DNA of 61,700 nucleotides, the filler included, from Nemertoderma westbladi (taxonomy: Eukaryota > Animalia > Xenacoelomorpha): assembly GCA_032718475.1 (NCBI GenBank). It is 3 parts of 3 records of this genome, joined end to end, with 100 filler letters (N's around TTAATTAATTAA, not from the genome) between each part and the next. Parts side by side here need not be neighbours in the genome. Positions count along the whole stretch, not along the records: positions 21,284 to 52,109 come from JAUCBJ010008153.1; 2 more parts are not named here. One strand, 5' to 3'. Position numbers and translations under genes: made by a program. Within the stretch, counting starts at the first letter, position 1. Every line of letters starts with the position of its first letter. The notes beneath the pieces were generated by a model. It saw only the letters and a program-made list of their open reading frames with translations, was not told the DNA's origin and did no database searches. Shown here piece after piece: positions 6,529 to 48,676 of this stretch.

Positions 6529-6547
6529 TTAATTAATTCTAATTAGT

Positions 6548-24705: not shown

Positions 24706-26650
24706 GTGTCCCGTATAGGGTCTTTCTGACCTGAATAGGGTGTACATTTATCATAATGATTTTAAATAGTTTCTAAATGTAATGAAATACTCAAAAGTAT
24801 ATAGAATTCACTACCATAGCTTTAATTTCATTCAATTTGTCCCAAATAGGTTGTTTTCGTCCCATATAGGGTGTTTTTGTGCCAAATAGCGTGTGACTTC
24901 CTCAAAATGATTTTAAATAGTTTCTAAATCTCATGTAATACTAAAAAGAATATAGAATTCACTACCATAGCTTTAATTTAAATTTATTTAAATTCATGAA
25001 GGTTGTTTTTGTCCCATATAGGGTGATTGTGTCCCGTATAGGGTGTGAATTGCTTATAATGATTTCAAATATTTTCTAAATGTAATGGAATATTCAAAAG
25101 AATATATTAGAATTCACTATGAATAGCTTTAATTTAAATTTGTCCCAAATAGGTTTTATGTCCCATATAGGGTGTTTGTATCCCATATAAGGTGTTTGTG
25201 TCCCAAATTGCGCATCACTTTCTCAAAATGATTTTACATAGTTTATAAATATAATGGAAAACTCTAAAGAAAATAGAATTCACTATCATAGCTTTAATTT
25301 AAATTTCTCCCAAATAGGTTGTTTTTGTCCCATATAGGGTGTTTGTGTGCCAAGTAGGGTATGACTTTCTCAAAATGATTTTACATAGTTTATTAATATA
25401 ATGGCATACTCAAAAGAAAATAGAATTCAGTATCATAGCTTAAATTTAAATTTGTCCCAAACAGGTTGTTTATGTCCCATATAGGGTGTTTGTGTCCCAT
25501 ATAGGGTGTTTGTGTCCCAAAGCATGGTAAATCTAAATGGTAAAGCTATGGTAGTGAATTCTATATTCTTTTGAGTATTCCATTACATTTCAAAATTATT
25601 TGAAATCATTATAAGAACTTCACACCCTATACGGGACACAAACACCCTATATGGGACACAAACAACCTATTTGGGACAAATTAAATTAAAGTTATGATAG
25701 TGGATTCTATTTCTTTTGAGTATTTCCATTATATTTATAAACTACGTAAAATCATTTTGAGAAAGTCACACTCTATTTGGGACACAAACACCCTATATGG
25801 GACACAAACACCCTATATGGGACATAAACAACCTATTTGGGACAAATTTAAATTAAAGCTATGATAGTGAATTCCATGTTCTTTTGAGTATTCTATTACA
25901 TTTAGAAAATATTTGAAATCATTATAAGCAATTCACACCCTATATGGGACTCAAACACCCTATATGTGACAAAAACAACCTATTTGGGACAAATTGAAAT
26001 TAAAGCTATGGTATTGAATTCTATATTCTTTTGAGTATTCCATGAGATTTAGAAACTATTTAAAATCATTTTGAGAAAGTCACACGCTTTTTGGAACATA
26101 AACACCCTATATGGGACACAAACTCCCTATATGGGACAAAAACAACCTATTTGGGACAGATTTAAATGAAAGCTATGATAGTGAATTCTATATTCTTTTG
26201 AGTATTTATTCTATTACATTTCGAAACTATTTGAAATCATTATAAGCATTTCACACCCTATACTGGACACAATCACCCTATATGGGACACAAACAACCTA
26301 TTTGGAACAAATTTAAATTAAAGTTATGATAGTGAATTATATTTTCTTTTGAGTATTCCATTATATTTATAAATTATGTAAAATCATTTTGAGAAAGTCA
26401 CACACTATTTGGGACACAAACACCCTATATGGGACAAAAACTTCCTGTATGGGACATAAACAACCTATTTGGGACAAATTGGAATTAGAGCTATGATTAT
26501 GAAGTCGATATTCTTTTCAGTATTCCTTTACATTTATAAACTATTTGAAATAATTTTGATAAAGCTACAGGCTATTTTGGACAAAATCAACCTATATGGG
26601 ACACTAACAACCTATTTGAGTCAAATTTTAGACTTATTTAGGACTATTTG
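24706..26650. repeat. Diverged satellite-like units of about 150 bp in two opposed arrays (foldback-like)
   Basis: GTCCCATATAGGGTG and GAATTCACTACCATAGC motifs run to about 25520, then their reverse complements CACCCTATATGGGAC and GCTATGGTAGTGAATTC run from about 25540. Confidence 0.85.
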
Positions 26651-26929: not shown

Positions 26930-28895
26930 AACTAGGGAACATGTATTACACGAAGTGGGGCCTTCGCGCAGCACGTGACTTAAATTTAATTTAAGTACTA
27001 ATTCGAAAGTATTACTGTATTAGCAAATTTTAAGCAGATTTCGCCTAATCACTTTTTCCTCTTTCATTTCTATTCAGACATTTCTGACTCTAGCGGTATA
27101 GTGAGAACTGAAGATGGATTAGGGTCTCCAGCCCCACAAAGACACAGCCTATGGATGAATAGTACATACGTACATCGGCCAAGTTTCATATTGAATAACG
27201 GATAACGAAATGAGAGACGGATCTCACTTTCAGAAATTTCGTCGTATAGCGGCAGACCGATTAAATCTCCCCCCCCCCCCCCCCCCCCCACAAAGACGCA
27301 GCATGTGGTCCAGAATATATGGCAAGATTCAGCTTAAACTGATTAAAATCAATGAGACGGGAGAATCTATTCACTTTCAGGCATAAAGTAGTCCTATAGC
27401 GGGTGACTGTTGAACTGATTTTCAACAAAACAAATTTTCAACTTGGCAGCTTTAAATTCGACAAAGTTATAAGCATGTCAATATCATAACGACGACAACG
27501 ATTTCACTTTCAGACATTTGGCCCTCTAGCGGCAGTCTGGAGAACTGCAGATGGATTCGCCTCCTTTGAAAGTCACAGCTAATGGTCTAATACATATCTG
27601 CCAAGTTTCAGCTTAAACGGATTAAAAGCAAAGAAATGGGAGGGCATTTAATGTTTAGACATGTGGCCCTCTAGCGGGAGACCATTGCACTGATGGTGTC
27701 TGAAAGTCTCTCAAAAATCTCAACTTTTGCTCATATTGATACCTACAAATTTTCAACTTTGCAGCTTTAAATCCGACAAAGTTATTAGCATGTCAAAATC
27801 GTAACGACGACAACGATTTCACTTTCAGACCTTTGGCCCTCTAGCGGCAGACTGGAGAACTGCAGATGGATTCGCCTCCTTTGAAAGTCACAGCTAATGG
27901 TCTAATACATATCTGCCAAGTTTCAGCTTAAACGGATTAAAAGCAAAGAAATGGGAGGGCATTTAATGTTTAGACATGTGGCCCTCTAGCGGGAGACCAT
28001 TGCACTGATGGTGTCTGAAAGTCTCTCAAAAATCTCAACTTTTGCTCATATTGATACCTACAAATTTTCAACTTGGCAGCTTTAAATCCGACAAAGTTAT
28101 TAGCATGTCAAAATCGTAACGACGACAACGATTTCACTTTCAGACCTTTGGCCCTCTAGCGGCAGACTGGAGAACTGCAGATGGATTCGCCTCCTTTGAA
28201 AGTCACAGCTAATGGTCTAATACATATCTGCCAAGTTTCAGCTTAAACGGATTAAAAGCAAAGAAATGGGAGGGCATTTAATGTTTAGACATGTGGCCCT
28301 CTAGCGGGAGACCATTGCACTGATGGTGTCTGAAAGTCTCTCAAAAATCTCAACTTTTGCTCATATTGATACCTACAAATTTTCAACTTGGCAGCTTTAA
28401 ATCCGACAAAGTTATTAGCATGTCAAAATCGTAACGACGACAACGATTTCACTTTCAGACCTTTGGCCCTCTAGCGGCAGACTGGAGAACTGCAGATGGA
28501 TTCGCCTCCTTTGAAAGTCACAGCTAATGGTCTAATACATATCTGCCAAGTTTCAGCTTAAACGGATTAAAAGCAAAGAAATGGGAGGGCATTTAATGTT
28601 TAGACATGTGGCCCTCTAGCGGGAGACCATTGCACTGATGGTGTCTGAAAGTCTCTCAAAAATCTCAACTTTTGCTCATATTGATACCTACAAATTTTCA
28701 ACTTGGCAGCTTTAAATCCGACAAAGTTATTAGCATGTCAAAATCGTAACAACGACGACGACGACGACGACGACAACGACGACGACGACGACGACGACAA
28801 CGACGACGACGACAACTATTTGCATAAATTGACCCACCCCCTAACAGTGTCAATTGGCTAAGGCTCCGCCAACTTCGTGGCTCGCCCCACAAATG
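26930..28895. mobile_element. Possible Helentron-associated (HINE/DINE-1-like) non-autonomous element: four 315-bp tandem units plus a (CGA)n microsatellite
   Basis: 315-bp period at 27490, 27805, 28120, 28435 and 28750; (CGA)n at 28750-28813; short inverted subterminal motifs ACGAAGT/ACTTCGT and GTGGGGC/GCCCCAC. The tandem array is certain; the element class is inferred. Confidence 0.5.
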
Positions 28896-29514
28896 CCCTT
28901 ATTTGGAATGGGAATTTCCACTGTACATATACCTCAACCAGCTCTTGTCCCAAATACGTTGCTCTGTCCAGTATAGGTTGTTATAATGAGCCCCGGATTC
29001 GTAGCTGACACTTGGATTATATATCAGTGGAATTTTCCATTAACCTTTACACTATATAGCCAATAAGGGAGATGCCTAACTTTAGGAATGTTGGTATTGG
29101 TACGATGACGAGGAGTTGGCTCATATGATGATTTGATTGGATGTCACTATATTGGACAGGTTGGAAATCATTACACAACGTATTTGGGACAGGTAGGAAT
29201 AATAGAAAGCCCCATAGAAGTGAAGGGAAACACCCTATTCTGGACAATGATGTAGATACTACTGTATTGGCCGAAACACCAATAACTTAACAGTTTATAC
29301 CTTTTTATAGGATATAAATTAGTTTTGTCTTTTTGGGTAAGTTTTTTGGGTAATATTGTGTTTTTTGTGTTTTATTGTGTTTTTTGGGTAAATTTTTGTG
29401 TTTTTTTGTATTTTTGGGTTTTTTTGTGTATTTTTGGGTAATTTTGTGTTTTTTTGGGTAATTCGTAGGACCGAATTTACTTGAATAATAATATATTATA
29501 TATTATATTCCCAA

Positions 29515-30042
29515 ATGAGACCGACAGGGCGGCTTACCGAAACTTTTCTGGGGTATGTTTACTTGTCCACCTTCGATGGGTTAGTCCCCCCAGTATGGAT
29601 GTATGTACAGAACGAACTGGGCCCTACCGGGTACGAGGCTGTGTTCGCCGTTTGGTTCGCCCCACTGGTGCTCGCCATCCCGGCGCTGTATCGTTCCTTC
29701 TCTTCTCGTTATGGAACCGCATTCCTCCGTCTCTCTTGTCTCCTTGGCATCGTATCGTTCCACGCCCCGGACGTTTACAAACGGATGGTCGTGGTTGCCG
29801 TTGGCAATGCTTTCATGTCAATTCTCTTGTGCGTGTCGCTGTGGAATAAAGATGCCAACAAAAGGAAATCCTTTTTCTGTGGGTTAATGTTGGGGGGTCT
29901 ACTTCTTCAAACGTTTCGTATTTGGTTCATTAGCTTCAATCCTTTGTACCTCCACCAAAAGATGAATAAGTTCATCACCGCCATCGCTTTCTTTGCTTCT
30001 ATCGCTATTGTTGAAGATGATTTCCGAGTTGAAGATGAGTAA
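29515..30042 (+). pseudogene. Truncated 5' duplicate of CWH43/PGAP2IP (first 175 codons)
   Basis: Near-identical to 48677-49204, including about 40 bp of upstream sequence. The homology ends at ..EDE and is immediately followed by TAA. Confidence 0.9.
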
Positions 30043-30976: not shown

Positions 30977-31545
30977 TGTGATGGGATCCACTGAGGATCC
31001 CGGTTTATCCGGTTTCTAGTTTACGCGTCCCCACCGTGTGTATGTGAAAGAGTTCTGAGTTATTGATTGATCGGTGTATATAGGTTCAAGGATATAATAT
31101 AATAAATGATAATAGCACGAATAGTTGATGTTTGATGCAGTGTACCGGTAAATGATAATATATTGCTGACAGCAGACGGAGACTGTAATTAGAGATCCGC
31201 TACTGTCCTAACTGACTGACTTACTACAAGTGAATGAAATAATGCAAGGACCGGTAATATATTGCACGGTTGGCCATGTTGCTCTACTCAGTCGATGCTT
31301 CCCCCTATTGGCTAATAACTCACTTGTCACCCTTCCCATTTCCCTGGGTGTGCTTCCCCCTGCTACTGTCTCCCTCTCCCTCCCGGAGGTATAACCTCTG
31401 ACCCCCGCTGTGTGTGTTCCCTTGGGGCCTATTGTCCCCGCTTATTGGGGTGACACGAGGTTGATTGGTAACCAACCTCGTGCTCCCAATATTGCTTAAA
31501 ACCAACTCTGTGTGTGGGGTGGTTGGCGGAATTGATACGCTAACA
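30977..31545 (-). repeat. 3' LTR of the BEL/Pao element (569 bp)
   Basis: Direct repeat of 44301-44875. By eye it differs by about ten substitutions and one 6-bp indel. Confidence 0.96.
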
Positions 31546-31554
31546 CTCCCCCCC
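31546..31554 (-). promoter_or_regulatory. Polypurine tract (GGGGGGGAG) abutting the 3' LTR
   Basis: The plus strand reads CTCCCCCCC immediately after ...CTAACA. Confidence 0.85.
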
Positions 31555-32375
31555 ATGCTATCTTCCCGGTGAGAAGATAGCATCCACCTCTAGTGCGCTA
31601 CAATTCCGCTGGATCTCGACCTAGTATCGAGTGTGGGGTGGAACTTTTTCTTCGGAGCCGGTTTTCCAGACTGCCCCCTATGGGTATGATATCGCTACCC
31701 TGTTTACCTGGCGTCCTGTGTCGGGCCGATCGTGCCCTCCTCTCACACGACTTTTGTTTCCCCAACACTTTCACCACTAACTCAACTCTACTCTCACCCT
31801 GACTCTCCTCTACTTCCCCTCACTTTCGTCCTAACTTTCGGACCTTCTCGTCCCTCACTCAGCCTCTTATTCCCCCCCCCCCCCCACACTTGAATTGCGC
31901 CTGCACTCTCTCCGCACTACAACTCAACCCCTATCTCACTCACTCACTCCCGACGAGTTTCACCCCCCTCCTGTGCCGTCGCACTCAAGGAGTGTGATGT
32001 CGTCCAGTGTCTCGTCCGTGTTAGTATTATAGTCTATTGGTCCCCAGTCCCAGTAGCTAATTGAGAAAAAAGGTTGTACGACTATAGTACTTACTCTGAT
32101 TGTATTACTTTCTAAACTAATAATGATTTCTACGTACGTACATACTAATTGCACTTTTCAATTATTTAAATTACTTGAATTCGTACTTAGGAGTTCGCAT
32201 GTCTCGCGTGGTGCCTTCCAGGCATATCACATGGATGTCTTAGTTCGTTCCACCTGTCTTTGGGAACCACCTCAACTCTTTCCCTCTATCATCCTCCTCC
32301 CTTGGTCGCTTCCTGGTCACTGCCGCTCCTTTGGTCTTTTCTGCTTTCTGGCTTCGGACCCTCGCCGCCACCTCC

Positions 32376-33341
32376 TTACTGATCCCGGTCGTCGACTCCT
32401 TGGGTGCTGGCGTTATTAGCTCCCGGTATCGCTTCGCGGGTGGCCCCTCCGAGTGGCCCTGTTGTCTCCCCCTGGTGGCGTCCCATAGGATCATTTTCAT
32501 TGCCCGCGGCACATGCTCCGCCAAGAAATCTCTGTTCTGTGGCGTCCAAATACCTCTGCGTATTTATCACCCCGGCATATGACGCCGCCGTCGCCACTTC
32601 CTGGTAGGTAAACGGAAGCCTCCGTTTGATAATCTCCATGTGGGCCTCCTGATTGATGTTAAAGAAGCCCCACCGGAACTCCTGGGCCTTCATACGTTGC
32701 TGAGTCATCACCCCGACGTCGGCCCACTCCTCGAAGATCCTAAACTTCTCTTCATCGTCCATCCAGTCACACTGACGCCTGTAATGCCCCCAAAAGTTAT
32801 ACTTCGAGCACCGGTTATGCAACCGTGGACACGCCCCCATCCTGTGGCTCGACTCGCGGCAGTAGAGACAACTAGTCCCTTTCTGGAACCGGTACAAACA
32901 GCTCCTTTCCTGGTGGGTCTGCCTCCCACAGTAGTCACAGCCGAGCACCAATGTCTCCCGCCCCACATCATCTTTCGTCCCAAGCGATCTCCGCTGTCTG
33001 TGGAGTCGCTGGTAAGCGAACTTCCGGACTTTAGCGTCCCTGTTTATATCGATCTCCTCGCCCCTCCCGGGCATCGTCTCCCCGAATACTACCCGTGGTG
33101 CCATCCCCGGTTGCTCGCCCAACCTGATGGTGCTCCCCGCGAAATCCATCGCCGGCTCCTCATGCACCCGGGCCCGCTTGCCAGGTTTATCCCAGAAGGC
33201 TCTTGCCCCACTGGCCGTCACCACCCTCCCGCCAACCCAGTCTGTGTCCGAGTGGCCGATCCTCTCGATGGGCGGCATATCTCCGAACTCGTCGTCATCC
33301 TCGTCCTCCTCTGGCAGTGGCTCCAATCCCGGCGGACCCAC
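32376..33341 (-). CDS. Accessory ORF, C-terminal part: acidic stretch and three CCHC-type zinc knuckles
   Basis: CDYCGRQTHQERSC, CLYCRESSHRMGAC and degenerate CSKYNFWGHYRRQC (CX2CX4HX4C spacing). Overlaps the upstream ORF in another frame, so it is probably one frameshifted protein. Confidence 0.75.
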   Translation of the reverse strand: MGPPGLEPLPEEDEDDDEFGDMPPIERIGHSDTDWVGGRVVTASGARAFWDKPGKRARVHEEPAMDFAGSTIRLGEQPGMAPRVVFGETMPGRGEEIDINRDAKVRKFAYQRLHRQRRSLGTKDDVGRETLVLGCDYCGRQTHQERSCLYRFQKGTSCLYCRESSHRMGACPRLHNRCSKYNFWGHYRRQCDWMDDEEKFRIFEEWADVGVMTQQRMKAQEFRWGFFNINQEAHMEIIKRRLPFTYQEVATAASYAGVINTQRYLDATEQRFLGGACAAGNENDPMGRHQGETTGPLGGATREAIPGANNASTQGVDDRDQ

Positions 33342-34875
33342 TATGTCCCTTCCCGCCTTGGCTCTCGCCCGTAACTTTCCATCCTTCTAGCTCCCCTAGC
33401 CTCCTTAGCGGCTGATCGCCCTCAGCGCCCGCTGGTATGGGCGTCGTCTGCAATCCCGACGTCGACTGTTTCGGTGATCCCACCGTCCATCCTAGTTCTC
33501 GCCCTAGAGACTTCCCCGAACTCCCTGATGAGGTCCAACGAAGTTCGTCTAAGGCCGCCTGTTCCTCGAAGCTGTAGCTCTGTGCCCTAGCTTCCTCCTC
33601 TCTTTCTTCTGCTTCTCTCCTATCCTGTCTAGCGATTTCTTCCAATCGCTTCGCCTCTCGCCTATCCGCCTCTAACTGCTCCCATCTCTGACACGGCGTA
33701 TCCACCTCCCTGTCTACCAGATGTCGGCTGTTATAGTACACCGACTCGCCCTTCAGCCCCGGGTGATCTACCAGATCCTCGAAAGCCGTCTTAAAGGCTC
33801 TTCTGTAGCTTAGGGGTGATCCCGATAATAGGAATGCCGTTGGTTCCCTCTCGATAACCACGGTCATGAATAGGTTAAGCAAACCCATCATTATCCAGTC
33901 CTCCTGTAGGATATATCGCTTCTGATATACCTTTATCGCTCCTCTCCGGAATTGATACACCTCTTGTCTCCCTGGCCTCGCTCCCCACTTCAGCGAGTTC
34001 GCCAAGTCCGCTCCGTATTCCCCTCTGAACTTACCCCAGTCCATCGGTTTGTGACACACGAGCCCCATTAGCTGGCCCATTGCCACCGCCCCGCAATGTC
34101 CTGTGTTCTCTACTAGTCCCAACCCGTCTGGTGCTGTCATAGCCATATAGACCGTCTGAATATCCAGAAGGTTGGGGGTGTCCGGACCGATGATTCTCTC
34201 CGCGTCGTTGCGAATCGCCGATCCCACTTTCGTCATCGACTTCTCTCTCACTAGGGTTTGCACCGCCTTCGGCAACCGGTTCAACTTCGGCCCGTCCTTC
34301 TTTCCATACGTTCCTAGATCGAATAGGAATATATCCCCATTTAGCGCGGCCAAATTTAGGAGTATGGTTCTGGCTGACGCCACCGTTCCTCTCCTCGAAC
34401 CCTCCTCGTCTTCCACGGTCCCCTCATTGTCTAGGACCATGTACCCTTCTCTGCTGACGGACTCTACGATCCTCTTCCAATCCTTCCTCGGTGGCTCTCT
34501 CGCGTACTTCGGAATCCCGAACTTCGCCTCGTCTCCCTTCACCACGTAGTGGAAATGCTCGAAGATCGCGTTGTCCAGCGACGGCGTCCCGTAGGTCCCG
34601 ACCAGCCACTGTTCGTGCACCGCCCTGAAATGGTCCTGTAGCGATCGTGCTGCGTGACCTCTCTCCAACCGCTCGTAGTATCCCTTCGTCTTCTCTTCCG
34701 GATGCCTCTTGGTGAAATCCACTAGTATTTCTTTTCCTCCTGACTCCGCCTTTCTCTTCTTAATCAGTTTCCCCGCCATTCCAAACACTCTCACTCGCTC
34801 ACCTGTAAGGTGGTGCCTTGCCAAGGCGCAATACAGATGAGTGATCGGTTTAAGATGGTCTGTACAGTTCGACAA
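33295..34875 (-). CDS. Accessory ORF, N-terminal part: DEDDy-type 3'-5' exonuclease (WRN-exo/RNase D/Mut-7-like) followed by a charged coiled coil
   Basis: ExoI YMVLDNEG; LLNLAALNGDIFLFDL; ExoII LPKAVQTLVREKSMTKVGSAIRNDAERI; NLLDIQ; ExoIII YQKRYILQED. Order and spacing follow the DnaQ-like WRN/RNase D pattern (aligned by eye). Confidence 0.75.
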   Translation of the reverse strand: MSNCTDHLKPITHLYCALARHHLTGERVRVFGMAGKLIKKRKAESGGKEILVDFTKRHPEEKTKGYYERLERGHAARSLQDHFRAVHEQWLVGTYGTPSLDNAIFEHFHYVVKGDEAKFGIPKYAREPPRKDWKRIVESVSREGYMVLDNEGTVEDEEGSRRGTVASARTILLNLAALNGDIFLFDLGTYGKKDGPKLNRLPKAVQTLVREKSMTKVGSAIRNDAERIIGPDTPNLLDIQTVYMAMTAPDGLGLVENTGHCGAVAMGQLMGLVCHKPMDWGKFRGEYGADLANSLKWGARPGRQEVYQFRRGAIKVYQKRYILQEDWIMMGLLNLFMTVVIEREPTAFLLSGSPLSYRRAFKTAFEDLVDHPGLKGESVYYNSRHLVDREVDTPCQRWEQLEADRREAKRLEEIARQDRREAEEREEEARAQSYSFEEQAALDELRWTSSGSSGKSLGRELGWTVGSPKQSTSGLQTTPIPAGAEGDQPLRRLGELEGWKVTGESQGGKGHSGSAGIGATARGGRG

Positions 34876-35349
34876 TGGCCTATTCCCTACTTACTCTTGA
34901 GTAATAGCCTAATTTTACTACCTAATTCCCTAAACTGTCAAATTGTACCCTAAATTACAATTTTGTCCGTTACTTTAATTATGTTCCAGAATTTACTTTC
35001 TACTGTTACCATAATTTGTTAATTTTCTTAGCCCTATTCTATTTTTAATATTTTAATTTAATTCAATCCCACTACTGTGCTATTACTTATTATTGCCAAT
35101 GGATTATTCTATTCCATAATCCACATTCTGGCCTACTCTATGGGCTTGTGCAGTACAACAGTATGCGTCGCGTGGCCTACACGATTTATCCAGCTGTACT
35201 CATATGCCCCGCCCCCCTCTCGCTACTTACTACTAACTGATATCTATATTATATATACCCTTCTACCTCTTACTCTTACTAGCCGGTACTACGTACCCTC
35301 TTACTAACCTCTAACTCTCTCTAACTAACTAACAGTACTACGTACCCTC

Positions 35350-35850
35350 TTACTACTAATTTCCCACTGTCTAACTAGCGGTACTACATACTCTCTCACT
35401 ACTAATTTCCCACTATCTAACTAGCGGTACTACATACTCTCACACTACTAATTTCCCACTATCTAACTAGCGGTACTACATACTCTCTCACTACTAATTT
35501 CCCACTATCTAACTAGCGGTACTACATACTCTCTCACTACTAATTTCCCACTATCTAACTAGCGGTACTACATACTCTCTCACTACTAATTTCCCACTAT
35601 CTAACTAGCGGTACTACATACTCTCTCACTACTAATTTCCCACTATCTAACTAGTGGTACTACATACTCTCTCACTACTAATTTCCCACTATCTAACTAG
35701 CGGTACTACATACTCTCTTACTAACGGTACTACGTACCCTCTTACTACTAATTTCCCACTATCTAACTAGCGGTACTACTTGCTACTTGCTAACGGTACT
35801 ACGTACCCTCTTACTACTAATTTCCCACTATCTAACTAGCGGTACTACTT
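35350..35850. repeat. 46-bp tandem repeat inside the BEL/Pao element, between integrase and the accessory ORF
   Basis: ACTAATTTCCCACTATCTAACTAGCGGTACTACATACTCTCTCACT at 35401, 35447 and onward, about 10 copies. Confidence 0.93.
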
Positions 35851-36059
35851 GCTACTTACTGACGGTACTACGTACCTTCTAACTACTAACTCCTACTATC
35901 TGCCTAACTCTTACTACTTCCATCTGCCTACTTACTCTTCCTTTATTTATTATTTTTTTTATATTTTATTTTTATTTGTGGGAAGGGCGTCTCACCCTCA
36001 ATCCCACCCCCCTCAGTGCAAAACTTGGATGACTAAACACCACTAAAATCCACTCTAAC

Positions 36060-37360
36060 TCAAGGTGCCCCCTCTAGCAGACAGCACTTCCCTACAGCTC
36101 TCCTGTAGGTCTTCCTGTCTTTCGCACCTATCTTGCCACCTATTCGCACTTCTACCGATCGGACTCTTCCGTCCTCATCGGAGTAAGTGCCCACAACTCT
36201 CGCCAACCGCCATTGGTTGTTAATGATGGTATCGTCCGTGACGATCACCAGATCACCCTCCTTTAGCTCTCTATTCGTGTTCTCCACTTACTTCTTCTAT
36301 GTAGTGTGGGCAGATATTCCTCGATCCACCTCCTCCAATACTCTGCGCTTATCGCCTTAGCGACTTTCCAACTCTGGCGGGAGTGTATGTCATCTGGGTC
36401 TACACCCCGCATATCGATAGTCGCTGGTCTTTCCATTAGGAAATGGCTGGGCGTCAGCACGTCTAATGACTCAGGGTCATCATTTTCTGGATATAGCAGT
36501 CTGCTATTAATGATACCCTCACACTTTGCTAGTACTGTCCTTAGTACGTCCTCTGTAACCATGTGGGTGTTCATCAACTTCGTCATCAGACGCTTCAAAC
36601 TACCCACTAGTCTCTCGACGCATCCTAGGGTATGCGGAGCATACGGCGTCCTCCTCTCCCATTTCACTTGTCGCCTTCTCATGGCTGCCCTGACTTCCTC
36701 CCCTTCCAGGATATCCAAGGCCTCTGCCATCTCATTCTCTGCCCCCACAAAGTTGGTTCCGCTGTCAGAATACATTACTGCGATCGTCCCACCTTTGCGG
36801 TCTCTAAACCTTTCTAGAGCATTAATGAATGCTGATGCGGTTGCATCTTGGGCGAGTTCTATTCCTACCGCCCGCGTGTTATTACATACGAAGATGATAC
36901 CGTAGAGTTTCTCCGTGTGCCGCATCACCTTAATCTTTATCAGCCCAAACATATCCACACCGCAATGCGTAAATGGCGGGTCGTGCTGTCTCACCCTACT
37001 GGCCGGTAGTGGCGCCATCTTCTGTATGGCTCGCTCCTTCTTCGCTCGTCGGCAGGTCTGGCACTGCCCCACTACTGCCTTTACCTTCTTCCTCAGCTGT
37101 TTGACCCAAAAGGCCCTCCGTATCTCCGTGAGGGTTCGGTTGGTGCCCCCGTGCAATATCGACTTGTGGGAGTCCCATATAATCTGGTGGACTATCGGCG
37201 ATCCAGTAGGTATGATGATGGGTTTTGGCGGTATTACAATACTGTTGTTGTTCAATACCCTCGAGTTCATTACTAGAATCCCGTCATCATTAAGTTGTGG
37301 TGACAGCGTGATCAGCTCGCTGTCTCGTCGAAGATGCTGTTGTTTACCGACGCATTCCAC
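36060..37360 (-). CDS. BEL/Pao integrase (HHCC, DDE core, C-terminal domain; frameshifted)
   Basis: HKSILHGG...CQTC, PPFTHCGVDMFG, YSDSGTNFVG, GCVERLVG, LTPSHFL, W..EYLPTL. The tail GDLVIV..WRLARV..DGRVRSVEV is in ORF 36060-36287. Confidence 0.95.
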
Positions 37361-37551
37361 CTCGTCGCCGTAGTTCTTCTCTCTGCTCGTAGCGGATGAC
37401 TGCTTTGGCTGCTCCCTCCAGATCGATGGTTGCTCTAGCTTTTACGTCTTTGTCGACTCCCTTGAGGAAATTCCCGAAGGCTCTCCAGTACGCCACTAAC
37501 TTCTTGGTCTTGTACCAACTGGAGCTGTAGCTGAGGAGTTTATCCGTCGGG

Positions 37552-39990
37552 TTATCGCACAGTTCTCCCGGTTTTGGTTGCACGTCCCTTATCTCCCTCA
37601 CCATTTGGCTGTATATCTCTTCTCCCTCTGAATCTCCCTCTTCTTCCTCTAACGCTACTTCTCCTGAGCCCGGGTCCACCTTTCTCATCGGCGGCCAGGC
37701 TGTCCTTATCGCTCAGAAACTGCGGCCCGTGCTGCCACAATACTTCCTTCTTCAAGAAAGTGTGGCGTGCCACGCCCCTCGATAACAAGTCCGCTGGGTT
37801 CTCGTCCGTTGGGCAGTAGTGCCACCTTTCTAACTCTGTGGTCACCCTTATTTCGTCCACCCTATTTGCGACGAATATAGGGTATCTCGTCCTTTCGTTA
37901 TGTAGCCAACCGAGCACTACCATGGAATCCGTCCAGTAGTGTGTTTCCACTATGTTGGGAATAGCGTCCATTAAGTAGGCTGTGGCCCTAACTCCTAATC
38001 TCGCAGCTGTCAACTCGAGTTTCGGAACTGATGCTGAATCTGGTGGCGTCGACTTCGCCTTGCTAAAGGCGAGTCTGGGCTTGTGAGCCCCCTCTCGCTG
38101 TACTAAGTAGAGTGCCGCTCCGTATGCCTCTAATGACGCATCGGAGAACATATGTAAATCCAGATTCGTCATGTTCCCGTCCGGGAAATATACACGTGGC
38201 ATGCTGTATGTTCCCATCTGCTCTAAACTCTCTGTCCACTTGTTCCATTGCTTACTAATCTCTTCCGGGACCTCTGTGTCCCACTCGTCCTTTAATTTGT
38301 ATACTCTCTTGAGTATCTGTTTCCCCGTGACTGGTAGTGGGGATGCTAGGCCTAGGGGATCGTATATCCTCGCTATATACGACACATAGCCCCTCTTTGT
38401 GTGGATACCTGCGCCCTCCTGACTCAGCTGGTATTTTAACTCGTCTGTCTCTCGGTTCCACACGATCCCTAGTGCCTTCTGCTGGGACTCCACTCTCTTG
38501 TTCGCCATGTCCTGTCCCTTGGCTGTCGTGGGATTATCCATGGTCGACTCTGGCCTCCTGTCCTCTATGGCTTTCATGAACTCTTGCGAGCTGGATTGGA
38601 ACTTGGTTAGGTTGAACCCGGATCCTTTTAGGATGTCGCGAACCTCGCGCCCCGTGTCCAGTAGTTCCTTAACCGTATTTCCAGACTCCATCCCGTCGTC
38701 TACATAGAAACCTCGTCGAATCATATCGACGGCTTTGGCGCTGAACTCATCTTCCTTCCCTGCTACCGTGTCTCTTACGGCCATAGTCGTTGTAAACGAA
38801 GACGACTTGGCTCCCATATTCTGTACTATCATCTTATACATTGGTATGGTCGATGGTTCCTCATCGCCGTCGTACCATAGGAAGCGTTGGCTGTCGCTAT
38901 CCTCTTCCGTTACACGGACTTGGTTGAACATGCCTTCGATGTCGCAGGTGAAAGCGTGTTTACCATTCCTGAATCTGAGTAGGACCCCGATCCCTGAGTT
39001 GTAGATGTTGGGACCCTCCAGCAGATAATCGTTTAGGCATTTTCCGTTGGTCTTGGCCGATGCGTCAACTACCATCCGCAGTTTACCTTTCTTCGGGTCT
39101 AGAGCCACGTGGAGTGGCAGGTAATAGGTCCTGTCCGTGTTTGGTTCGTCGACCGGTAATTCTACGGCCCATCCTTTCTCGACATACTTTCTAATTGTCT
39201 TGTGAATGTACTCATTCTTCTCGGGGCTCCGTTTTAGCGTCTGCTTTAACTTACGAAGCCTCGTGAGTACCATCCCTTTGTTGTCGGGTAATGGTAGCTT
39301 CGGTAGCTTCCATACCATTCCTATGGTATACCGCCCCTCATCGCATGTCATCGATTCCTTTACACTTTGTAAAGCCTGCTTGTCTTCTACCGAGGTTCCG
39401 ACCCCGGTCTCCTTTAATCCCTCGAAATCCTGCCTGAGCAGTCTCCTGAGCTGCTCCTCCGCTCCCTCATCCTCCATCTCTCGCATAGTTCCCGTGAACA
39501 TGCATCCTGATGTCTCCGACATCCTAAATGGTATCTTACTCTTAATTGGGCCACTCAGCGTCCACCCGACTGGTGTTAATATCGCCACCGGGTCACACTG
39601 CCTGTCTTCGCCGAAGACCGTTTGCATTCTCTCGTGGGCCGTCGGGCAGTCCATTCCTACTATGATGGATACCTTCCTGACGTCCACCTCTGGGATTGAG
39701 AAGTCGATACTGTCCAGGAATCTATATTGTTCGACCTCGATGTTGGTTGGCCGCCTGGCGTTGATATTTATCGACTCTATCACCTGGATGGGGTCGATGG
39801 TCGCCCCATAGTCGCATCCCAGTGCCACCGCTGCTATCGCGCACCGTCCGGTCCTCATCTCCAGGAACTCATCTCTGCTGGAGATGGTTGTCACCGCCAT
39901 TCTACTTGGCCTCGTTCTCAATCCTATCTCTTCGGCCACCCAATCCTCGACTAAGTGTGAAGGCTGCTCCACTGTCGACCAGCATCAGTG
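37552..39990 (-). CDS. BEL/Pao pol: aspartic protease, reverse transcriptase, RNase H (frameshifted)
   Basis: LVDSGA protease site at about 39965-39985 (adjacent frame); YYLPLH, KLRMVVDAS, LNDYLLEGP, DIEGMFNQV, FYVDD; LHMFSDAS, PKLELTAA, WTDS, FVANRV, ENPADLLSRG. Confidence 0.96.
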
Positions 39991-42900
39991 TGGTCACTGA
40001 TCGATTGCCTTCCCCGATCACTCGCACTGGTACTACCCCAAGTAATACCGTTCCTCTCTTCTTCGCTCCCTACGGTGCTCGTTGCCATCGTTTGGCCTTT
40101 ACTTTGACCGAACTTAATCGGCGTCTCCTTGCATTGTTTGGCTCTGTGTCCACTCATCACACATCGCGAACAGATCTCATTTCTTGTTGCGTATTCTACC
40201 TGATCTTCCCTGGGTAGCGCTTGCCAGTGCCTGCAATTCATGGTCTGATGAAGTGCATTTGTATGTAGCTGGCATTTGCTCTTTGGGTCGTAGCCGTCCT
40301 TATACAGTGCATTGCGATCACAGTTGCATTTGTACCAAAGTCCCTACTATTCTTATTGTTTGGGCTCGGCCTACTGGGCGTACTGGGGTTATGTTTATTT
40401 GTATTGTTATTTTTCCCCTGTCCGCTCCATGATGTGGTCTTATCCCCGGCTACTTGTGGACTGGTAGTCCCCTGCGTTGCTGCGTACGGCAGTGACTGTC
40501 TGAGCTTTGGCAATGCGTTCGACGCGTTGTGCTCTGGTTTCGGCCTGTGGTAATCGGTCTTTGATCCCTTTCCCAGGCTATCCTCGCTATAGACTGGGTC
40601 CGTTATAAGTTCAGCTTCATAGTTTAAGAAGCTTGACATCTCTTCTAAACCCGGTTCCGCACCCTTCCTATCTCGAGTGGAGAAAGCGATTTTTCTCCAC
40701 TTATTGCGCAGCCACATCGGTAGTGCCTGCGCTATCGTGGTGATGTTGTTGGACGCGTTGAGTTCGTATGGCGCCTCTAGCGTCTTTAGCACGATTAGCG
40801 CCTTCTCGACTTTGTTAGCGAATGTCTTTATGCTAACGGGGTTATCCTGTAGGCCACCCGATGTTATACCTCTCAGGGTCTGCCGGATGATCTTGGCTGG
40901 GTGCCCGTATTCCCTGTCTAATGCCCGCCATGCCATCGTGAAGCCACCCTCGATGCCCTGGTATTGCCTCACGATGTCGTATGCTGGGCCCCCTGTATAT
41001 ACTTGCAGATACTTTAGGCACTCCGCCTGCGTCAAATTCTTTGTTAATATTTCGTTACTATACATGCGCCGAAACTGTAGGTATTCTTCCGGCCTACTTC
41101 CATCGAATTTGAATGGTTCCACGGGTGGTAACTCGATCCTAGTCTTTAATGCATCGATTAACGTGGCCATCCCCATCGCTTGCGCTTCCAATGGGTTCGA
41201 TGGATGCTGTATAGGTTCTCCCGTTGGGTGCGGTCCGTTCATCCTGTTTGCCGCTTTCCTCTGACTTGGATATATCATAGGGGGTAGCGGCCCCCTCCAT
41301 ATTTCGGTGTCGCATGATCTATTCTCGTCCAAGGGGTTCGATGTTCTTACTCCTATTGGGGTATATTGTTGATATTGTGATGGGGGAATGTCACCCTGCC
41401 CCCCCCCCCCCCCCCCCCCACCGGTATGTTTGGTACTGGGGTTGATGTTAATATATTGGGGCCCATACACCTATCCGCAGTAATTCTCCCCTCCCCTGGG
41501 TATATGTTATGTCCTTGCATGCTGTAGTCATACTGCTGTGCTGGTACCGGTATAGGCCTATCTACTTCTGGCCTACCTGCCGGTATATACTACGCGACTT
41601 CCGGGTTTAATCCCGTTGTTCGCGCTATCCTATCGCCTACATTATCTCTCTCAGCATGGCCTATGGTATGTGCAGTAAGGCCTACAGTATGTCCTGCAGT
41701 CTGTACGTGTCGATTGGGATCAAAGTTTATCCTTCTCGAATAATCCTTCCCACGGCTACCATATTCTCGTTCGGTAGGTATATCCCGTCGGGAAGTTTCT
41801 CTTCGACCCCCTCCACTGCTCTCGTCCTCGTGCCGGTACATCCCGTACCCCTCTCTCTGCGCTTAATACGCCTCGTCAGGTCGCGTTCCTCCGGGGCGAC
41901 GGCAATCTCCCGAAGTTTGACCCCACTGACTCTCCGTCTCCACCTCTACTACCGACGGCTCGCTATCCGCCCTCGCTCTCCTGTCATTTGCGGCGACACT
42001 TCTTCTACTCTCTTCCTTTCTTCTCTCTGTAGTGCAGTATTCCCGCTCGTGAGATCTCTCGTCGACCTCCCGGTTAAACTCCACTGTTCTTCTTCCCTCT
42101 TCTGATCGGGCTCGACGCCTCGTCGCTCGCCCTCTCGCGACGTCAACCTGTCTCTCTCTGCTCGATTGCACGCCGCTGGGGATACTCGCAATCCCCCTAT
42201 TACTCTCCATCGCCGGGTGTTGCGGTTTACCTAACTCGGCCCGCGCATTATCCGTCGACGCCTGTGGGGCACTCTCTGCCCCCCCCCCCCCTCTCGCCGC
42301 TAACTTGTCGTTGTGGGGCTCCTGTAGCCCCCCACTCGCCACATCTAACTTCACTATCTCTTACTTCGCGACTACACCCCTCTCTAGCCGACACATTAAC
42401 CCTACTGCGGCTGGGTCTATTCACTCCCGCCTCTCCCTCTGCTACTGTGTGGCCTACCAGGCTCTCTACTTCCTGCCTACTAACTACGTGGCCTACCAGG
42501 CCCTCTTCGGGTTGGCTCAACCCCGCCACTTCCGGCCTACTAACTACGTGGCCTACCAGGCCCTCATTTGCCGGGTTATACACGTCCGACACGTTCACGT
42601 TAATAGCACCACTGATATTGCCATTGGTTAGATCAATTAAATCCTCTAACTCAATTAAGTTATTTTGTGCGCCCAGATTAGAAACGGAATTATTTTGCTC
42701 GTTCAAAATAAGATTATTTGAATTATTTTGTAAATTCGGATTTAAGTTTAAATTATTTGAATTATTTTGCGTAATTATATTATTTGAATTATTTTGCGTA
42801 ATTATATTATTTGAATTATTTCCTACATTAATATTAGAATCATTCGGATTTAAATTACTACTGTCGGGCAAAATATTATTTCCTGCAATGAAAGTTTGAT

Positions 42901-44237
42901 TAGAATTATCCAATATGGTACTATTAATATTAACGTTGTCTACTGTATTATTATTATTACCCCCCGCCCATACGGTCACACCAGTCTCGGGTCTGTCGTG
43001 CGGTTCCTGTAAGTGGGGTATTAATAAATGTTTCCACAACCCTTGGCTCCTCGAAAATACTCGAGCCAGCGTCACTCTCTGACAACCCCATCTGCGCCAG
43101 CTCCAGCCTGCGCTTCTGTTTGGTTTGATACTAAATAAGTCCGCTTATGCGGGCATGTAAACCATCCCGCACACGCTTTACCGCTCTCTCTCTCTCTGTA
43201 TCCTCTCGCAAATTCTGTTTCACTAATTATGTTTCTCTCGCCACACGCTCCTTACGTTCACTCTGCTCTCTTTCCTCGCACTCCCTAAAGCGTCTCACGA
43301 CCTTCTCGGCGTTCTCTCTATTTCTCTAACTAGTTCTTTCTCCTTCTCTAATAGCGCACTCTCTTCTTCTAACTGTCTCTCGAATTCTCTCTGACCTAGC
43401 GCCGCCAGATCGAGTTGGCACGCCAGATTTATCGCCATCACCCGTTTTTCTTGTGCGGAGGATGTAGCAGACTTATCGGTTGTGACGGATTCCCTCCGCC
43501 TTCCCGTCCTACTGACTCTCCCCCACCTCCCGGAACTCCCTCCGACCGACGAGACCGAATCCTCGGGGTTAACCTCGGATTCGCCCTCCTGCGGTCTCCT
43601 CCAACCCACTAATTTTACTCCCCGGGCATCGACTAAGTATGGCCCTATGTACACTACACTAGGCTGCATACCCCTACACTCCCATAGTTCAAACAGTTCG
43701 CTGGCAACCCCTCTCGCTCTCTCCTCGGCTAGTTCTCTCTGCCCAAAACGCATCAATAGTTAAATGTTCATTCGACTCACCTAGTCGTCTTTTCAACTTC
43801 ACCTGGTCTATCTTGGCCCCTCCTTTGGTCTCTTTGAGTAGTTTCCGGGCTGCGTTGTAAGCTCGTCAAAGTCGATCGCTGACCCCGACGTCCTCGTCGC
43901 CGACATCTCCTCTATCTCTCCGGGTCCGGCGTCGTACCGGCGGCCCCACCGTCGCCGTTCCGGTGGGCCGTCCGTCGCCCTCGGCCTTTGGCTGGCCGGC
44001 GACTTCGGCACGTCGACCGCCGCTGTGTGTCGACTCGTCTCTCTCCTCTCCCGACTCGTCTTTCCCTCCTCTCGGCTCTTCTTCTGGTTCTAGACGGCCC
44101 CCCTCATCCTGGATTGCCGGATCGCCCGTTGTCGGTTGATTCGGCGTCGCAGGACGGTACCGTTGCGTCGCGGCCTCGCGGATCGTTAGATCGCCATCCG
44201 GGGTCCGCGGCAGTGTCGTTTCCCCTTCTCGACTCAT
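39951..44237 (-). CDS. BEL/Pao gag region, fragmented by frameshifts, with a long N-terminal extension
   Basis: Core 40238-41470 has FDGSRPEEYLQF, LKYLQVYTGGPA and AWRALDREYG (Pao gag) plus DPVY. The knuckle CSRCVMSGHRAKQC is in 39951-40241. Upstream ORF pieces run to the ATG at 44237 and are charged, coiled-coil-like or Asn-rich. Confidence 0.8.
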
Positions 44238-44300
44238 CTTTAGCAGTCAGCTCGGGCTGTTAGATTCTATAACTTAGGGCAGCTGGTTGGTTCTAATTAC

Positions 44301-44875
44301 TGTGACGGGATCCACTGAGGATCCCGGTTTATCCTGTTTCTAGTTTACGCGTCCCCCCTGTGTGTATGTGAAAGAGTTCTGAGTTATTGATTGATCGGTG
44401 TATATAGGTTCAAGGATATAATATAATAAATGATAATAGCACGAATAGTTGATGTTTGATACAGTGTACCGGTAAATGATAATATATTGCTGACAGCAGA
44501 CTGAGACGGTAATTAGAGTTCCGCTACTGTCCTAACTGACTGACTTACTACAAGTGAATGAAATAATGCAAGGACCGGTAATATATTGCACGGTTGGCCA
44601 TGTTGCTCTACTCAGTCGATGCTTCCCCCCTAGGGTATTGGCTAATAACTCACTTGTCACCCTTCCCCTTTCCCTGGGTGTGCTTCCCCCTGCTACTGTC
44701 TCCCTCTCCCTCCCGGAGGTATAACCTCAGACCCCCGCTGTGTGTGTTCCCTTGGGGCCTATTGTCCCCGCTTATTGGGGTGACACGAGGTTGATTGGTA
44801 ACCAACCTCGTGCTCCCAATATTGCTTAAAACCAACTCTGTGTGTGGGGTGGTTGGCGGAATTGATACGCTAACA
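44301..44875 (-). repeat. 5' LTR of the BEL/Pao element (575 bp)
   Basis: Direct repeat of 30977-31545, upstream of gag on the minus strand. Confidence 0.96.
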
Positions 44876-45440: not shown

Positions 45441-47006
45441 TACGGTGGCTGAATTGTGCCACTTAATACTTTTTTTTATTTTATTTTTGAAGCGACTTTT
45501 TGGTCGACCAAAAAGGACTTTTTGGTCGACCAATAAGTCGACTTTTTGGTCGACCAAAAAGTAGTTTTTGGTCGACCAATAAGTCGACTTTTTGGTCGAC
45601 CAAAAAGTCTGGAAGTATTATCCAATAGAAAACATACAACTATTTTCGAGGCAAAATCAAATTACATTAAGTGAATTAGGTGGTTATTTAAAACCGTCAA
45701 TTATCACATTTAAAACCGTAACACTATCATGATGAAGGATTAATATCCTAGGTACCGGTAGGCCTAGCGATCAATGTGTTTAACAAAGCTTTATGTACAC
45801 CGGTACAGTAATTTGATTTTACCTCCAAAATAGTTATATATATGTTTTCTATTGGATAATACTTCCAGACTTTTTGGTCGACCAAAAAGTACTTTTTGGT
45901 CGACCAATAAGTCGACTTTTTGGACGACCAATAAGTACTTTTTGGTCGACCAAAAAGTAGTTTTTGGTCGACCAATAAGTTTTTTTTTTTTTTTTTTTTA
46001 ACTCTTTAAGTCTCATTTATTCACATAGATAATAAAACGTTAATGTTAAACAATACCCACCACCAGCCGACGTTACTAGGCAACCAATATAAGAGGGAAA
46101 TTTAAAATGAAATCCTTTGCCCGCCCCCAACACAGAAACAGTCTCTATGGTGTATGGAGCATACTACTGTATTTACACCACCCTACCGAACTGCGCCAAC
46201 ACCCCAGGGTCTGAGTCCGCGTTAGCCAACCGGATCGATGAGTCGGTGACTGCCTCCCGCGCCGGTCGCCTAGCAGCCGAACGGTACCCGCGTAAACACA
46301 TTAATGACGACCTGAGGAGGGAGAAACTGATTCGCCGACGTACCCATGAGACGCACTCCGGATAGGGAACCTGCCGTTTGTCGGACAACTTCACCGCCAG
46401 TCGTTTGACAGTACTTTTTGGTCGACCAATAAGTCGACTTTTTGGTCGACCAATAAGTACTTTTTGGTCGACCAATAAGTACTTTTTGGTCGACCAAAAA
46501 GTAGTTTTTGGTCGACCAATAAGTCGACTTTTTGGTCGACCAAAAAGTACTTTTTGGTCGACCAATAAGTCGACTTTTTGGTCGACCAATAAGTACTTTT
46601 TGGTCGACCATTAAGTAGTTTTTGGTCGACCAAAAAGTACTTTTTGGTCGACCAATAAGTCGACTTTTTGGTCACTTTTTGGTCGACCAATAAGTACTTT
46701 TTGGTCGATCAAAAAGTAGTTTTTGGTCGACCAATAAGTCGACTTTTTGGTCGACCACTAAGTAGTTTTTGGTCGACCAATAAGTCGACTTTTTGGTCGA
46801 CCAATAAGTCGACTTTTTGGTCGACCAAAAAGTACTTATTGGTCGACCAAAAATTACTTTTTGGTCGACCAAAAAGTCGACTTATTGGTCGACCAAAAAG
46901 TACTTATTGGTCGACCAAAAAGTACTTTTTGGTCGACCAAAAAGTCCCTTAAAAAAATAAATAAAAAAAATATTAAGCTGTTAAGTGGCACAATTCAGCC
47001 ACCGTA
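45441..47006. mobile_element. MITE/foldback element with TIR TACGGTGGCTGAATTGTGCCACTTAA, 6-bp TSD ATTTCT and internal GGTCGACC palindromic arrays
   Basis: Perfect 26-bp TIRs, ATTTCT at 45435-45440 and 47007-47012, and dozens of 21-23-bp TTTTTGGTCGACCAA(T/A)AAG units. Confidence 0.88.
45980..46410 (-). mobile_element. 3' end of a CRE-like (restriction-like endonuclease) non-LTR retrotransposon with poly(A) tail
   Basis: KRLAVKLSDK...Y..CVSWVRRRISFSLLRSSLMCLRGYR resembles the CRE-clade C-terminus. Stop at 46173, AATAAA at about 46017-46022 on the minus strand, poly(A) at 45980-45999. Confidence 0.7.
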
Positions 47007-48233: not shown

Positions 48234-48676
48234 TGGTGCGCAAGAGCGCACACACTGACACACACACAGACACACCGTGTGTGCGCAAGCGCGCACATGT
48301 GGCTTGCTCTGTTGACACACGGCGCACATTTTTGGCCTTTTCCGCGCACGCGCACGCGCCGCGCACCCATTATTTTACCGCGCACAACGCGTTCTAATTT
48401 TTGCAAACATTTTCCAGCCTGGCCGGTCAGTCGATCTGTCGACTGTCGATCGCAGGTTGGGCTGTTGGGTGTTTATTCAATTTCGAATATTCGTTTGGTT
48501 AACGCTTCACCTTGTACTGTGACTGTACCGGACAGCCGGAAGTTATCCATTAAGGCTTGCAGCGCAACCTAGGGCAGTAGGGCTACCGTAGGGGCGCAAG
48601 AGCCAAGAGGACTACTTCTGATATTATAATTTCTGAATTTACTTGATTAATAATATATTATATATTATATTCCCAA

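Follow-up and report, generated by a model that had tools for sequence, protein, structure and literature searches.

A probable exonuclease and zinc-knuckle gene in the third-gene position of a BEL/Pao-type retrotransposon from Nemertoderma westbladi

The element and its third gene

The DNA analyzed here (the window, 61,700 nucleotides [nt] of the Nemertoderma westbladi assembly GCA_032718475.1) contains a complete BEL/Pao-type long terminal repeat (LTR) retrotransposon of 13,899 nt, which runs on the minus strand from 44875 to 30977. Between its integrase and polypurine tract lies a third open reading frame (ORF3; all features in Table 1) of about 800 codons from ATG to last stop. ORF3 is a family-wide accessory gene that likely encodes an RNA-binding 3'-5' exonuclease, made up of a DEDDy-type domain, a long linker and three CCHC knuckles.

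The gene order (protease, reverse transcriptase [RT], RNase H, integrase) and the Gag and Pol domains are of the BEL/Pao type, as judged by domains and homologues, in agreement with the context proposed by an earlier, sequence-only reading of this DNA. Gag contains DUF1759 (PF03564; E = 2.8e-11, within 40238-41470), the pol region has a strong Peptidase_A17 match (PF05380; E = 7.5e-42) and a weak RVT_1 match (E = 0.01), and the integrase carries Integrase_H2C2, rve and DUF5641. PF05380 is present in all 120 Pol homologues among the matches listed, yet these are only 32 to 38% identical to the element, which on sequence is therefore a divergent BEL/Pao-type lineage. Its LTRs are 97.2% identical, with 10 mismatches and one 6-nt gap. 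The target-site duplication of BEL/Pao elements is 5 bp, and here the flanks match at only three of five positions, at best an imperfect duplication. The frame map shows gag and pol of this copy to be interrupted at several places. The gag region begins with some 2.8 kb that look coding (41470-44246, minus strand) and lie before DUF1759; they include an Asn-rich low-complexity stretch (42248-43144) and gave no match in Pfam. The polypurine tract is directly preceded by an 8-bp inverted repeat without mismatches, whose loop is 7 nt long (31558-31580, minus strand).

In this copy ORF3 consists of two overlapping sense-strand frames (33295-34890 and 32376-33386) between the integrase stop and the polypurine tract and 3' LTR, as the earlier reading had described; its figure of 830 codons counted the overlap twice. 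The only ATG near the start of the first frame is at 34779, and ORF3 is separated from the integrase stop (36062-36060) by a spacer of 1.3 kb. ORF3 may have a message to itself, either spliced or subgenomic; the candidate splice acceptor before the ATG (CAG at 34803) is unremarkable among 559 candidates, and splicing is unsupported. An envelope (env) protein, which some relatives encode in this position and which the earlier reading had already discounted, was rejected: the N-terminus is charged, with no signal peptide, and there is no hydrophobic anchor or transmembrane segment (best 19-residue hydropathies, 1.34 and 0.49 for the two frames). A charged helical stretch and the acidic patch noted earlier are both present. 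Codon usage of ORF3 correlates with that of pol (0.62) and gag (0.60); no such agreement is seen with two further ORFs in the window (0.05 and -0.28).

ORF3 belongs to the family rather than to this copy. Parts of it occur in five public DNA runs (three studies), one of which may be the source of this window, and contigs from four of four runs (three studies) cover 30 of 30 bins of the element, ORF3 included; these contigs show the gene to be family-wide, against the single nested insertion or captured fragment that the sequence-only reading had kept in view. The contigs aligned on the element number 42,515, 23,160, 21,658 and 357 per run, a depth that is not equivalent to copy number; the family is very abundant and high-copy, and contigs of other copies are highly diverse. 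At the frame overlap, the sole covering contig of run X5 and one X1 contig carry an insertion or deletion relative to this copy, and nine X1 and three X3 contigs stop aligning at the place of the break. These differences at the break fit a single continuous ORF3 frame in other copies, which is highly probable.

Between 33200 and 34480 there are 158 variant places; 40 of these were listed, and variation among copies was analyzed at 38 of them, leaving aside 2 next to the break. Third-position variants were in excess (20/38 versus 12.3 expected; p = 0.007), radical variants were depleted (12/38 versus 18.0; p = 0.03) and stop variants were absent (0/38 versus 1.1). With coverage in many copies, this variant pattern and element-like codon usage, ORF3 is therefore a long-resident family gene under moderate constraint. 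Relatives of either frame were not found by tblastn in 79 other BEL loci from metagenomes (best E = 0.49), most of which contain less than 2.5 kb past the integrase, and 10 downstream frames scanned in other BEL loci were Gag, protease or without assignment. Metagenome, viral and phage collections held no relative of the first frame, a search covering longer proteins only gave no homologue of the second frame among 108 candidates, and an integrase search of viral contigs found no match.

The exonuclease-like domain and the knuckles

The motifs LDNE, KVGSAIRND and QKRYILQED had been read as ExoI, ExoII and ExoIII of a DEDDy exonuclease; the last two lie exactly where they had been placed and the first about 2 nt away. 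On an alignment of 43 references, D154 and E156 (the D-x-E of ExoI) and D229 (ExoII) occupy columns invariant in all 43, and W302, Q323 and Y326 (the ExoIII Tyr) also fall on invariant columns. In this register the ExoIII acid is E330, where 43 of 43 references have Asp, and not the adjacent D331. To judge from these residues, the domain is a DEDDy-like variant (D-E-D-Y-E) and not a canonical member. No variant in the E330 codon is among the 40 of 158 rows listed, though the neighboring places 33907 and 33886 are, and Glu at this position is probably family-wide.

Several comparisons place ORF3 above its controls. In the ESM Atlas search, which was not steered by the hypothesis, 24 of 30 hits belonged to the exonuclease set of PF01612, at 0.91. 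A custom hidden Markov model (HMM) of 53 bacterial PF01612 domains aligned to residues 140-252, where it matched ExoI to D154/E156 and ExoII to D229, and scored 6.7 bits, a value reached by none of 1,000 shuffles (best, 2.5); by this profile ORF3 ranked first of 266 frames in the window (next, -0.1) and above 120 Pol proteins and 2,168 frames of other BEL loci (best, 4.8), and no PF01612-like frame was found with it in the 79 other BEL loci. When the profile was divided into four, only the group of stand-alone exonucleases scored (4.9 bits, with one shuffle higher). The hhalign score was 24.0, against 22.0 for the best of 100 shuffles, and the global alignment goes on to take in the conserved Trp, Q323 and Y326, with Y326 and E330 on the ExoIII motif. 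The column score on the 43-reference alignment was exceeded by 1 of 217 shuffles. BLASTP against Escherichia coli RNase D aligned a single 40-residue piece (E = 0.017).

Structure prediction, proposed earlier as a check, succeeded only in part. From the single sequence, AlphaFold gave an unusable model with a predicted local distance difference test (pLDDT) score of 33; with a borrowed alignment of DEDDy proteins, pLDDT rose to 74 and the predicted template modeling (TM) score (pTM) was 0.73. The second model matched only DEDD-type structures among the matches listed, with the trypanosome exonuclease TbRND as top Foldseek hit (E = 8.8e-7; TM, 0.57) and, in VIA, tied with other DEDDy enzymes at Z scores of 13 to 14 (TbRND: Z, 13.7; root mean square deviation, 3.2; 183 residues aligned). 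Built on a borrowed alignment, the model makes these matches dependent on that choice and indicates compatibility with the DEDD fold, not proof of it. The Atlas lead and the profile and alignment scores, weak but consistent, make a DEDDy/DnaQ fold of the N-terminal half probable, so that the earlier claim of a DEDDy exonuclease is probably right for the fold and is qualified by the fourth acid. Because of that Glu, we put catalytic activity at only slightly better than even.

The second frame as a whole has no match in Pfam. The knuckles matched zf-CCHC_4 at E = 0.046, and their ESM Atlas neighbors are mostly zf-CCHC proteins, with scores below 0.9. Three CX2CX4HX4C knuckles had been reported; the pattern fits two of the three in this copy, and the third is short of one ligand, whereas contigs of other copies differ at the defective codon and fit the pattern.

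Primer site and possible functions

The primer-binding position of the element is atypical for a retrotransposon that is BEL/Pao-type by its proteins. TGG is absent from the 41 nt after the 5' LTR of this copy, which therefore has no tRNA-type primer site, and no tRNA genes were found in the window. The first 9 nt after the 5' LTR are instead perfectly complementary to a 9-nt site within the LTR, which is also intact in the 3' LTR (31193-31185). A 9/9 match is rare in shuffled sequence (P = 0.0026 at offset 0, 13 of 5,000 shuffles; P = 0.0086 at offsets 0 to 3), and the two segments are predicted to pair at 0.78 to 0.99 in leaders starting at 44600, 44545 or 44520. Three of the 10 LTR mismatches lie within 7 nt of the site, which is itself unchanged. 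About 20 nt upstream of it is TCAGTT, which we take to be an initiator-like motif. Other BEL loci (L062 and L019) carry ordinary TGG-type primer sites; in a complete BEL/Pao element from a metagenome (L029), the TGG-type site (2772-2800) begins 11 nt past the apparent LTR end.

The lack of a tRNA site together with a 9-nt complement in the LTR is the signature by which self-priming was predicted in Tf1, Tj1, Tcn1 and TAR elements, and by this analogy the present element may well self-prime its reverse transcription. The abnormal primer site is also the only element-specific hint of a substrate for ORF3, and on that ground we prefer the reading that ORF3 trims the element's own RNA at its 3' ends and may thereby supply the primer for self-priming, with a rough probability of 0.3. 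Among the three functions suggested by the sequence-only reading, the missing tRNA site and the self-complement favor the trimming of a primer or RNA end over silencing suppression and cDNA editing. In such a scheme, single-stranded RNA would be gripped by the knuckles and its 3' end passed to the nuclease, as in TbRND, whose CCHC fingers promote RNA binding and cleavage (PMC7797062). Folding of the leader would bring the LTR site and the primer-binding position together as a duplex, and the nuclease would shorten an already cut or truncated element RNA as far as that duplex, where it stalls. Stalling would leave a 3' OH for RT, which is the weakest link of the proposal. Processing of element RNA 3' ends was also proposed for the DEDDy genes of rotifer retroelements (PMC5408684). 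The fullest version, in which a BEL/Pao lineage exchanged tRNA priming for self-priming and encodes a TbRND-like exonuclease-knuckle enzyme of primer maturation, is doubtful; no primer-maturation enzyme of this type was found for any LTR element in the literature searched.

A number of results count against RNA trimming or the steps that lead to it. The RNase H of Tf1 RT is said, in a paper title, to make the primer itself, so self-priming would need no extra nuclease. The 9-nt match was noticed post hoc in one copy, and the predicted pairing disappears if the entire LTR is included in the fold. Besides the Glu at the fourth acid and the dependence of the model on its alignment, the domain had no match in Pfam (PF01612 included, the family to which the earlier reading pointed), NCBIfam or PDB sequences and one weak, unrelated family in PHROGs. 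Neither 7,997 scored candidates from a set of 5.8 billion proteins nor 1.84 billion representative proteins contained a homologue of the first frame. Atlas recognition was 2208, under the line of 2300, with 161 to 162 shared features versus the usual 170. Only two of the five custom profiles scored, those for NrnC, PolA and RNase D alone giving nothing; the window-wide E value was 0.054, and in the MAFFT alignment the count of motif matches (7 of 14 conserved columns) was reached by 21 of 217 shuffles and is not significant. The synonymous excess (14/38 versus 11.0 expected; p = 0.19) is not significant alone, and the variant statistics rest on 40 of 158 variant rows. DEDDy genes also occur on rotifer Terminons, which lack LTR priming (PMC5408684), and this suggests a broader function.

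RNA trimming has two close rivals. In the first, the nuclease is weak or dead and ORF3 is an adaptor resembling Egalitarian or EXD1, which would bind element RNA through its nuclease fold and knuckles and whose coiled coil would link it to transport, export or packaging. Glu at an otherwise invariant Asp, probably throughout the family, would suit such a protein, as would the coiled coil and knuckles; the borrowed-alignment model matched both Egalitarian and EXD1, and EXD1 and Maelstrom have been described as inactive RNA binders (PMC5408684). However, D154, E156, D229 and Y326 are all retained, Asp to Glu is a conservative change, and D331 is adjacent, and an adaptor of this kind is a tentative alternative that we take seriously.

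The second close rival is an active exonuclease directed at host small RNAs, such as precursors of PIWI-interacting RNAs (piRNAs) or small interfering RNAs (siRNAs) or slicer fragments, with the knuckles choosing the substrate. Mature piRNAs are 3'-methylated, which counts against them as targets, and the Glu at the fourth acid is no help to an active enzyme. On the other hand, TbRND, Nibbler/Mut-7, EXD1 and RICE1, all matches in the fold class, act on small RNAs or in RNA pathways; the family is very abundant, and DEDDy cargo recurs across unrelated retroelements. Overexpressed TbRND depletes guide RNAs (PMC7797062). Rotifer elements with a DEDDy ORF3 are nevertheless still covered by small RNAs and have no clear gain in copy number (PMC5408684). 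Counter-silencing, put forward by the sequence-only reading, is a tentative alternative, close to the adaptor in probability.

The other explanations are less likely. If the N-terminal domain did not have a DnaQ fold, ORF3 would be a knuckle protein of another fold with a chance likeness to the motifs. Low scores, the lack of a curated family or homologue and the frequency with which shuffles match the motif columns would then be expected, but the independent Atlas lead, a collinear match across the entire domain and a profile score that no shuffle or control frame reached make this unlikely. A DNA exonuclease that proofreads cDNA or trims its ends before integration has precedents in the WRN and PolA exonucleases of the same family and in the DEDDy domain of Dada DNA transposons, thought to process 3' ends (PMC3706591). 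ORF3 is, however, a separate gene fused to neither RT nor integrase, its knuckles are of the RNA type, and element copies are highly diverse; we regard such a role as very unlikely. The reading of ORF3 as a single nested insertion, or as a host fragment captured recently, could cite the lack of a relative in 79 other BEL loci but was rejected on account of the four-of-four-run coverage (like that of the rest of the element), element codon usage and third-position bias.

Table 1. Features of the retrotransposon and of ORF3 in window coordinates
Feature	Position	Strand	Basis or remark
5' LTR	44301..44875	-	575 nt, TG...CA ends
Candidate self-primer, 9-nt LTR site	44509..44517	-	Perfect complement of 44300-44292
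Primer-binding position, no tRNA-type TGG start	44292..44300	-	First 9 nt after 5' LTR
gag region, long N-terminal extension, several frames in this copy	39951..44246	-	DUF1759 and frame map
pol: protease, RT, RNase H part	37552..39984	-	Peptidase_A17 and RVT_1
Integrase, one frame break close to end, stop 36062-36060	36060..37441	-	Integrase_H2C2, rve, DUF5641
Tandem repeats, 46 nt and 69 nt, purine-rich	35321..35901	-	Tandem Repeats Finder; in 1.3-kb integrase-ORF3 spacer
ORF3 first frame	33295..34779	-	ATG 34779, 494 codons; 531 aa between stops (33295-34890)
Probable DEDDy (PF01612-type) 3'-5' exonuclease domain	33847..34473	-	Residues ~140-348
Motif LDNE	34434-34423	-	ExoI
Motif KVGSAIRND	34230-34204	-	ExoII
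Motif QKRYILQED	33924-33898	-	ExoIII
D154	34431-34429	-	
E156	34425-34423	-	
D229	34206-34204	-	
Y326	33915-33913	-	
E330	33903-33901	-	
Charged E/R-rich stretch, likely coiled coil	33541..33690	-	Sequence; coiled coil from composition only
Overlap of the two ORF3 frames, site of this copy's break	33295..33386	-	Contigs of other copies differ here
ORF3 second frame, with acidic patch (33311-33285), knuckles and a C-terminal domain outside known families	32376..33386	-	336 aa
CCHC-type zinc knuckles, three in all: two canonical and one, the third, degenerate here	32769..32939	-	Pattern scan
Polypurine tract	31546..31554	-	Abuts TG of 3' LTR
3' LTR	30977..31545	-	569 nt, TG...CA ends

Further features of the window lie outside the element. 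An intronless PGAP2IP-like ORF of 713 codons lies at 48647-50788, and its start is duplicated across the element at 96.5% identity (29473-30039 and 48635-49204). Palindromic repeat arrays of 22, 24 and 46 nt are found just outside the 5' LTR (45490-46945), and nested inverted-repeat arrays and a 315-nt tandem repeat of 98% identity occur at 24817-26628 and 27430-28761. Next to a protein-kinase ORF (6533-7534) is a satellite whose 59-nt unit is present in about 86 copies (7463 to ~12500). Remains of other elements comprise a second BEL/Pao integrase end with DUF5641 (52432-53469, plus strand) and an RT fragment (1602-2579, minus strand).

Relation to known systems

The element has the LTRs, gag DUF1759, Peptidase_A17, RT, integrase with DUF5641 and polypurine tract of BEL/Pao elements (Belpaoviridae; PMC8742986 and PMC3118150), although its Pol is at most 38% identical to any match listed. 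At 13.9 kb, it exceeds the family range of 4.2 to 10 kb, and the third gene of Belpaoviridae, where there is one, is env-like, unlike ORF3 (PMC8742986). The profile of the family by the International Committee on Taxonomy of Viruses (ICTV) gives a tRNA-Arg or tRNA-Gly primer site (PMC8742986), of which this copy has none, and self-priming in BEL/Pao, if true, would depart from that description. No exonuclease gene in BEL/Pao was found in the literature searched, a search without Repbase, Dfam, most subscription journals and supplements; the word "exonuclease" does not occur in PMC13524379 or PMC3118150.

A DEDDy third gene as retroelement cargo is already known. DEDDy ORF3s have been published for the bdelloid rotifer LTR retrotransposons Juno and Vesta and for Athena/Terminon elements, as the sequence-only reading correctly stated (PMC5408684), and later reviews cite them; Dada DNA transposons likewise carry a DEDDy domain (PMC3706591). 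Like those of Juno and Vesta, the gene described here lies after pol in the place of env, has an altered acidic motif and probably encodes an RNase D-like DEDDy domain, and for both 3'-end processing and silencing roles have been proposed; the two sets of genes were compared by description. The host element differs (BEL/Pao), as does the motif (D-E-D-Y-E here, DEED there), and the rotifer ORFs reportedly have no coiled coils, nor is a CCHC array described for them (PMC5408684), whereas ORF3 has knuckles and a likely coiled coil. The novelty lies in the superfamily (BEL/Pao), in the joining of knuckles to a domain with a D-E-D-Y-E motif and in the connection with a leader that is possibly self-priming.

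Self-priming is documented for Tf1 and Tj1 and predicted for plant Tcn1 and TAR (PMC4600332 and PMC6317226). Like Tf1/Tj1/sushi, Tcn1 and TAR elements, the present element has a primer-binding position complementary to an LTR segment and no tRNA site. Those elements are of the Gypsy or copia type, however; in them the primer is the mRNA 5' end, and no accessory nuclease is described in these two sources. Egalitarian and EXD1 have the same fold class put to use in RNA binding, but they are host genes, whereas ORF3 retains four of the five catalytic positions.

Why unrelated retroelements repeatedly capture DEDDy exonucleases has been a question since the rotifer paper of 2017. The present case extends this cargo to BEL/Pao, in a very abundant family, and, because the primer site is abnormal, the element's own leader is a concrete candidate substrate. 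It also adds an RNA-gripping knuckle array resembling that of a solved enzyme, TbRND (PDB 7c42-7c4c), in which a DEDDy exonuclease is likewise followed by CCHC knuckles. TbRND is a cellular, mitochondrial protein with a canonical DEDD motif and four fingers after a 28-residue linker (PMC7797062). The three knuckles of ORF3 lie about 300 residues downstream of its exonuclease domain, and the resemblance between the two is one of arrangement, with no common origin claimed.

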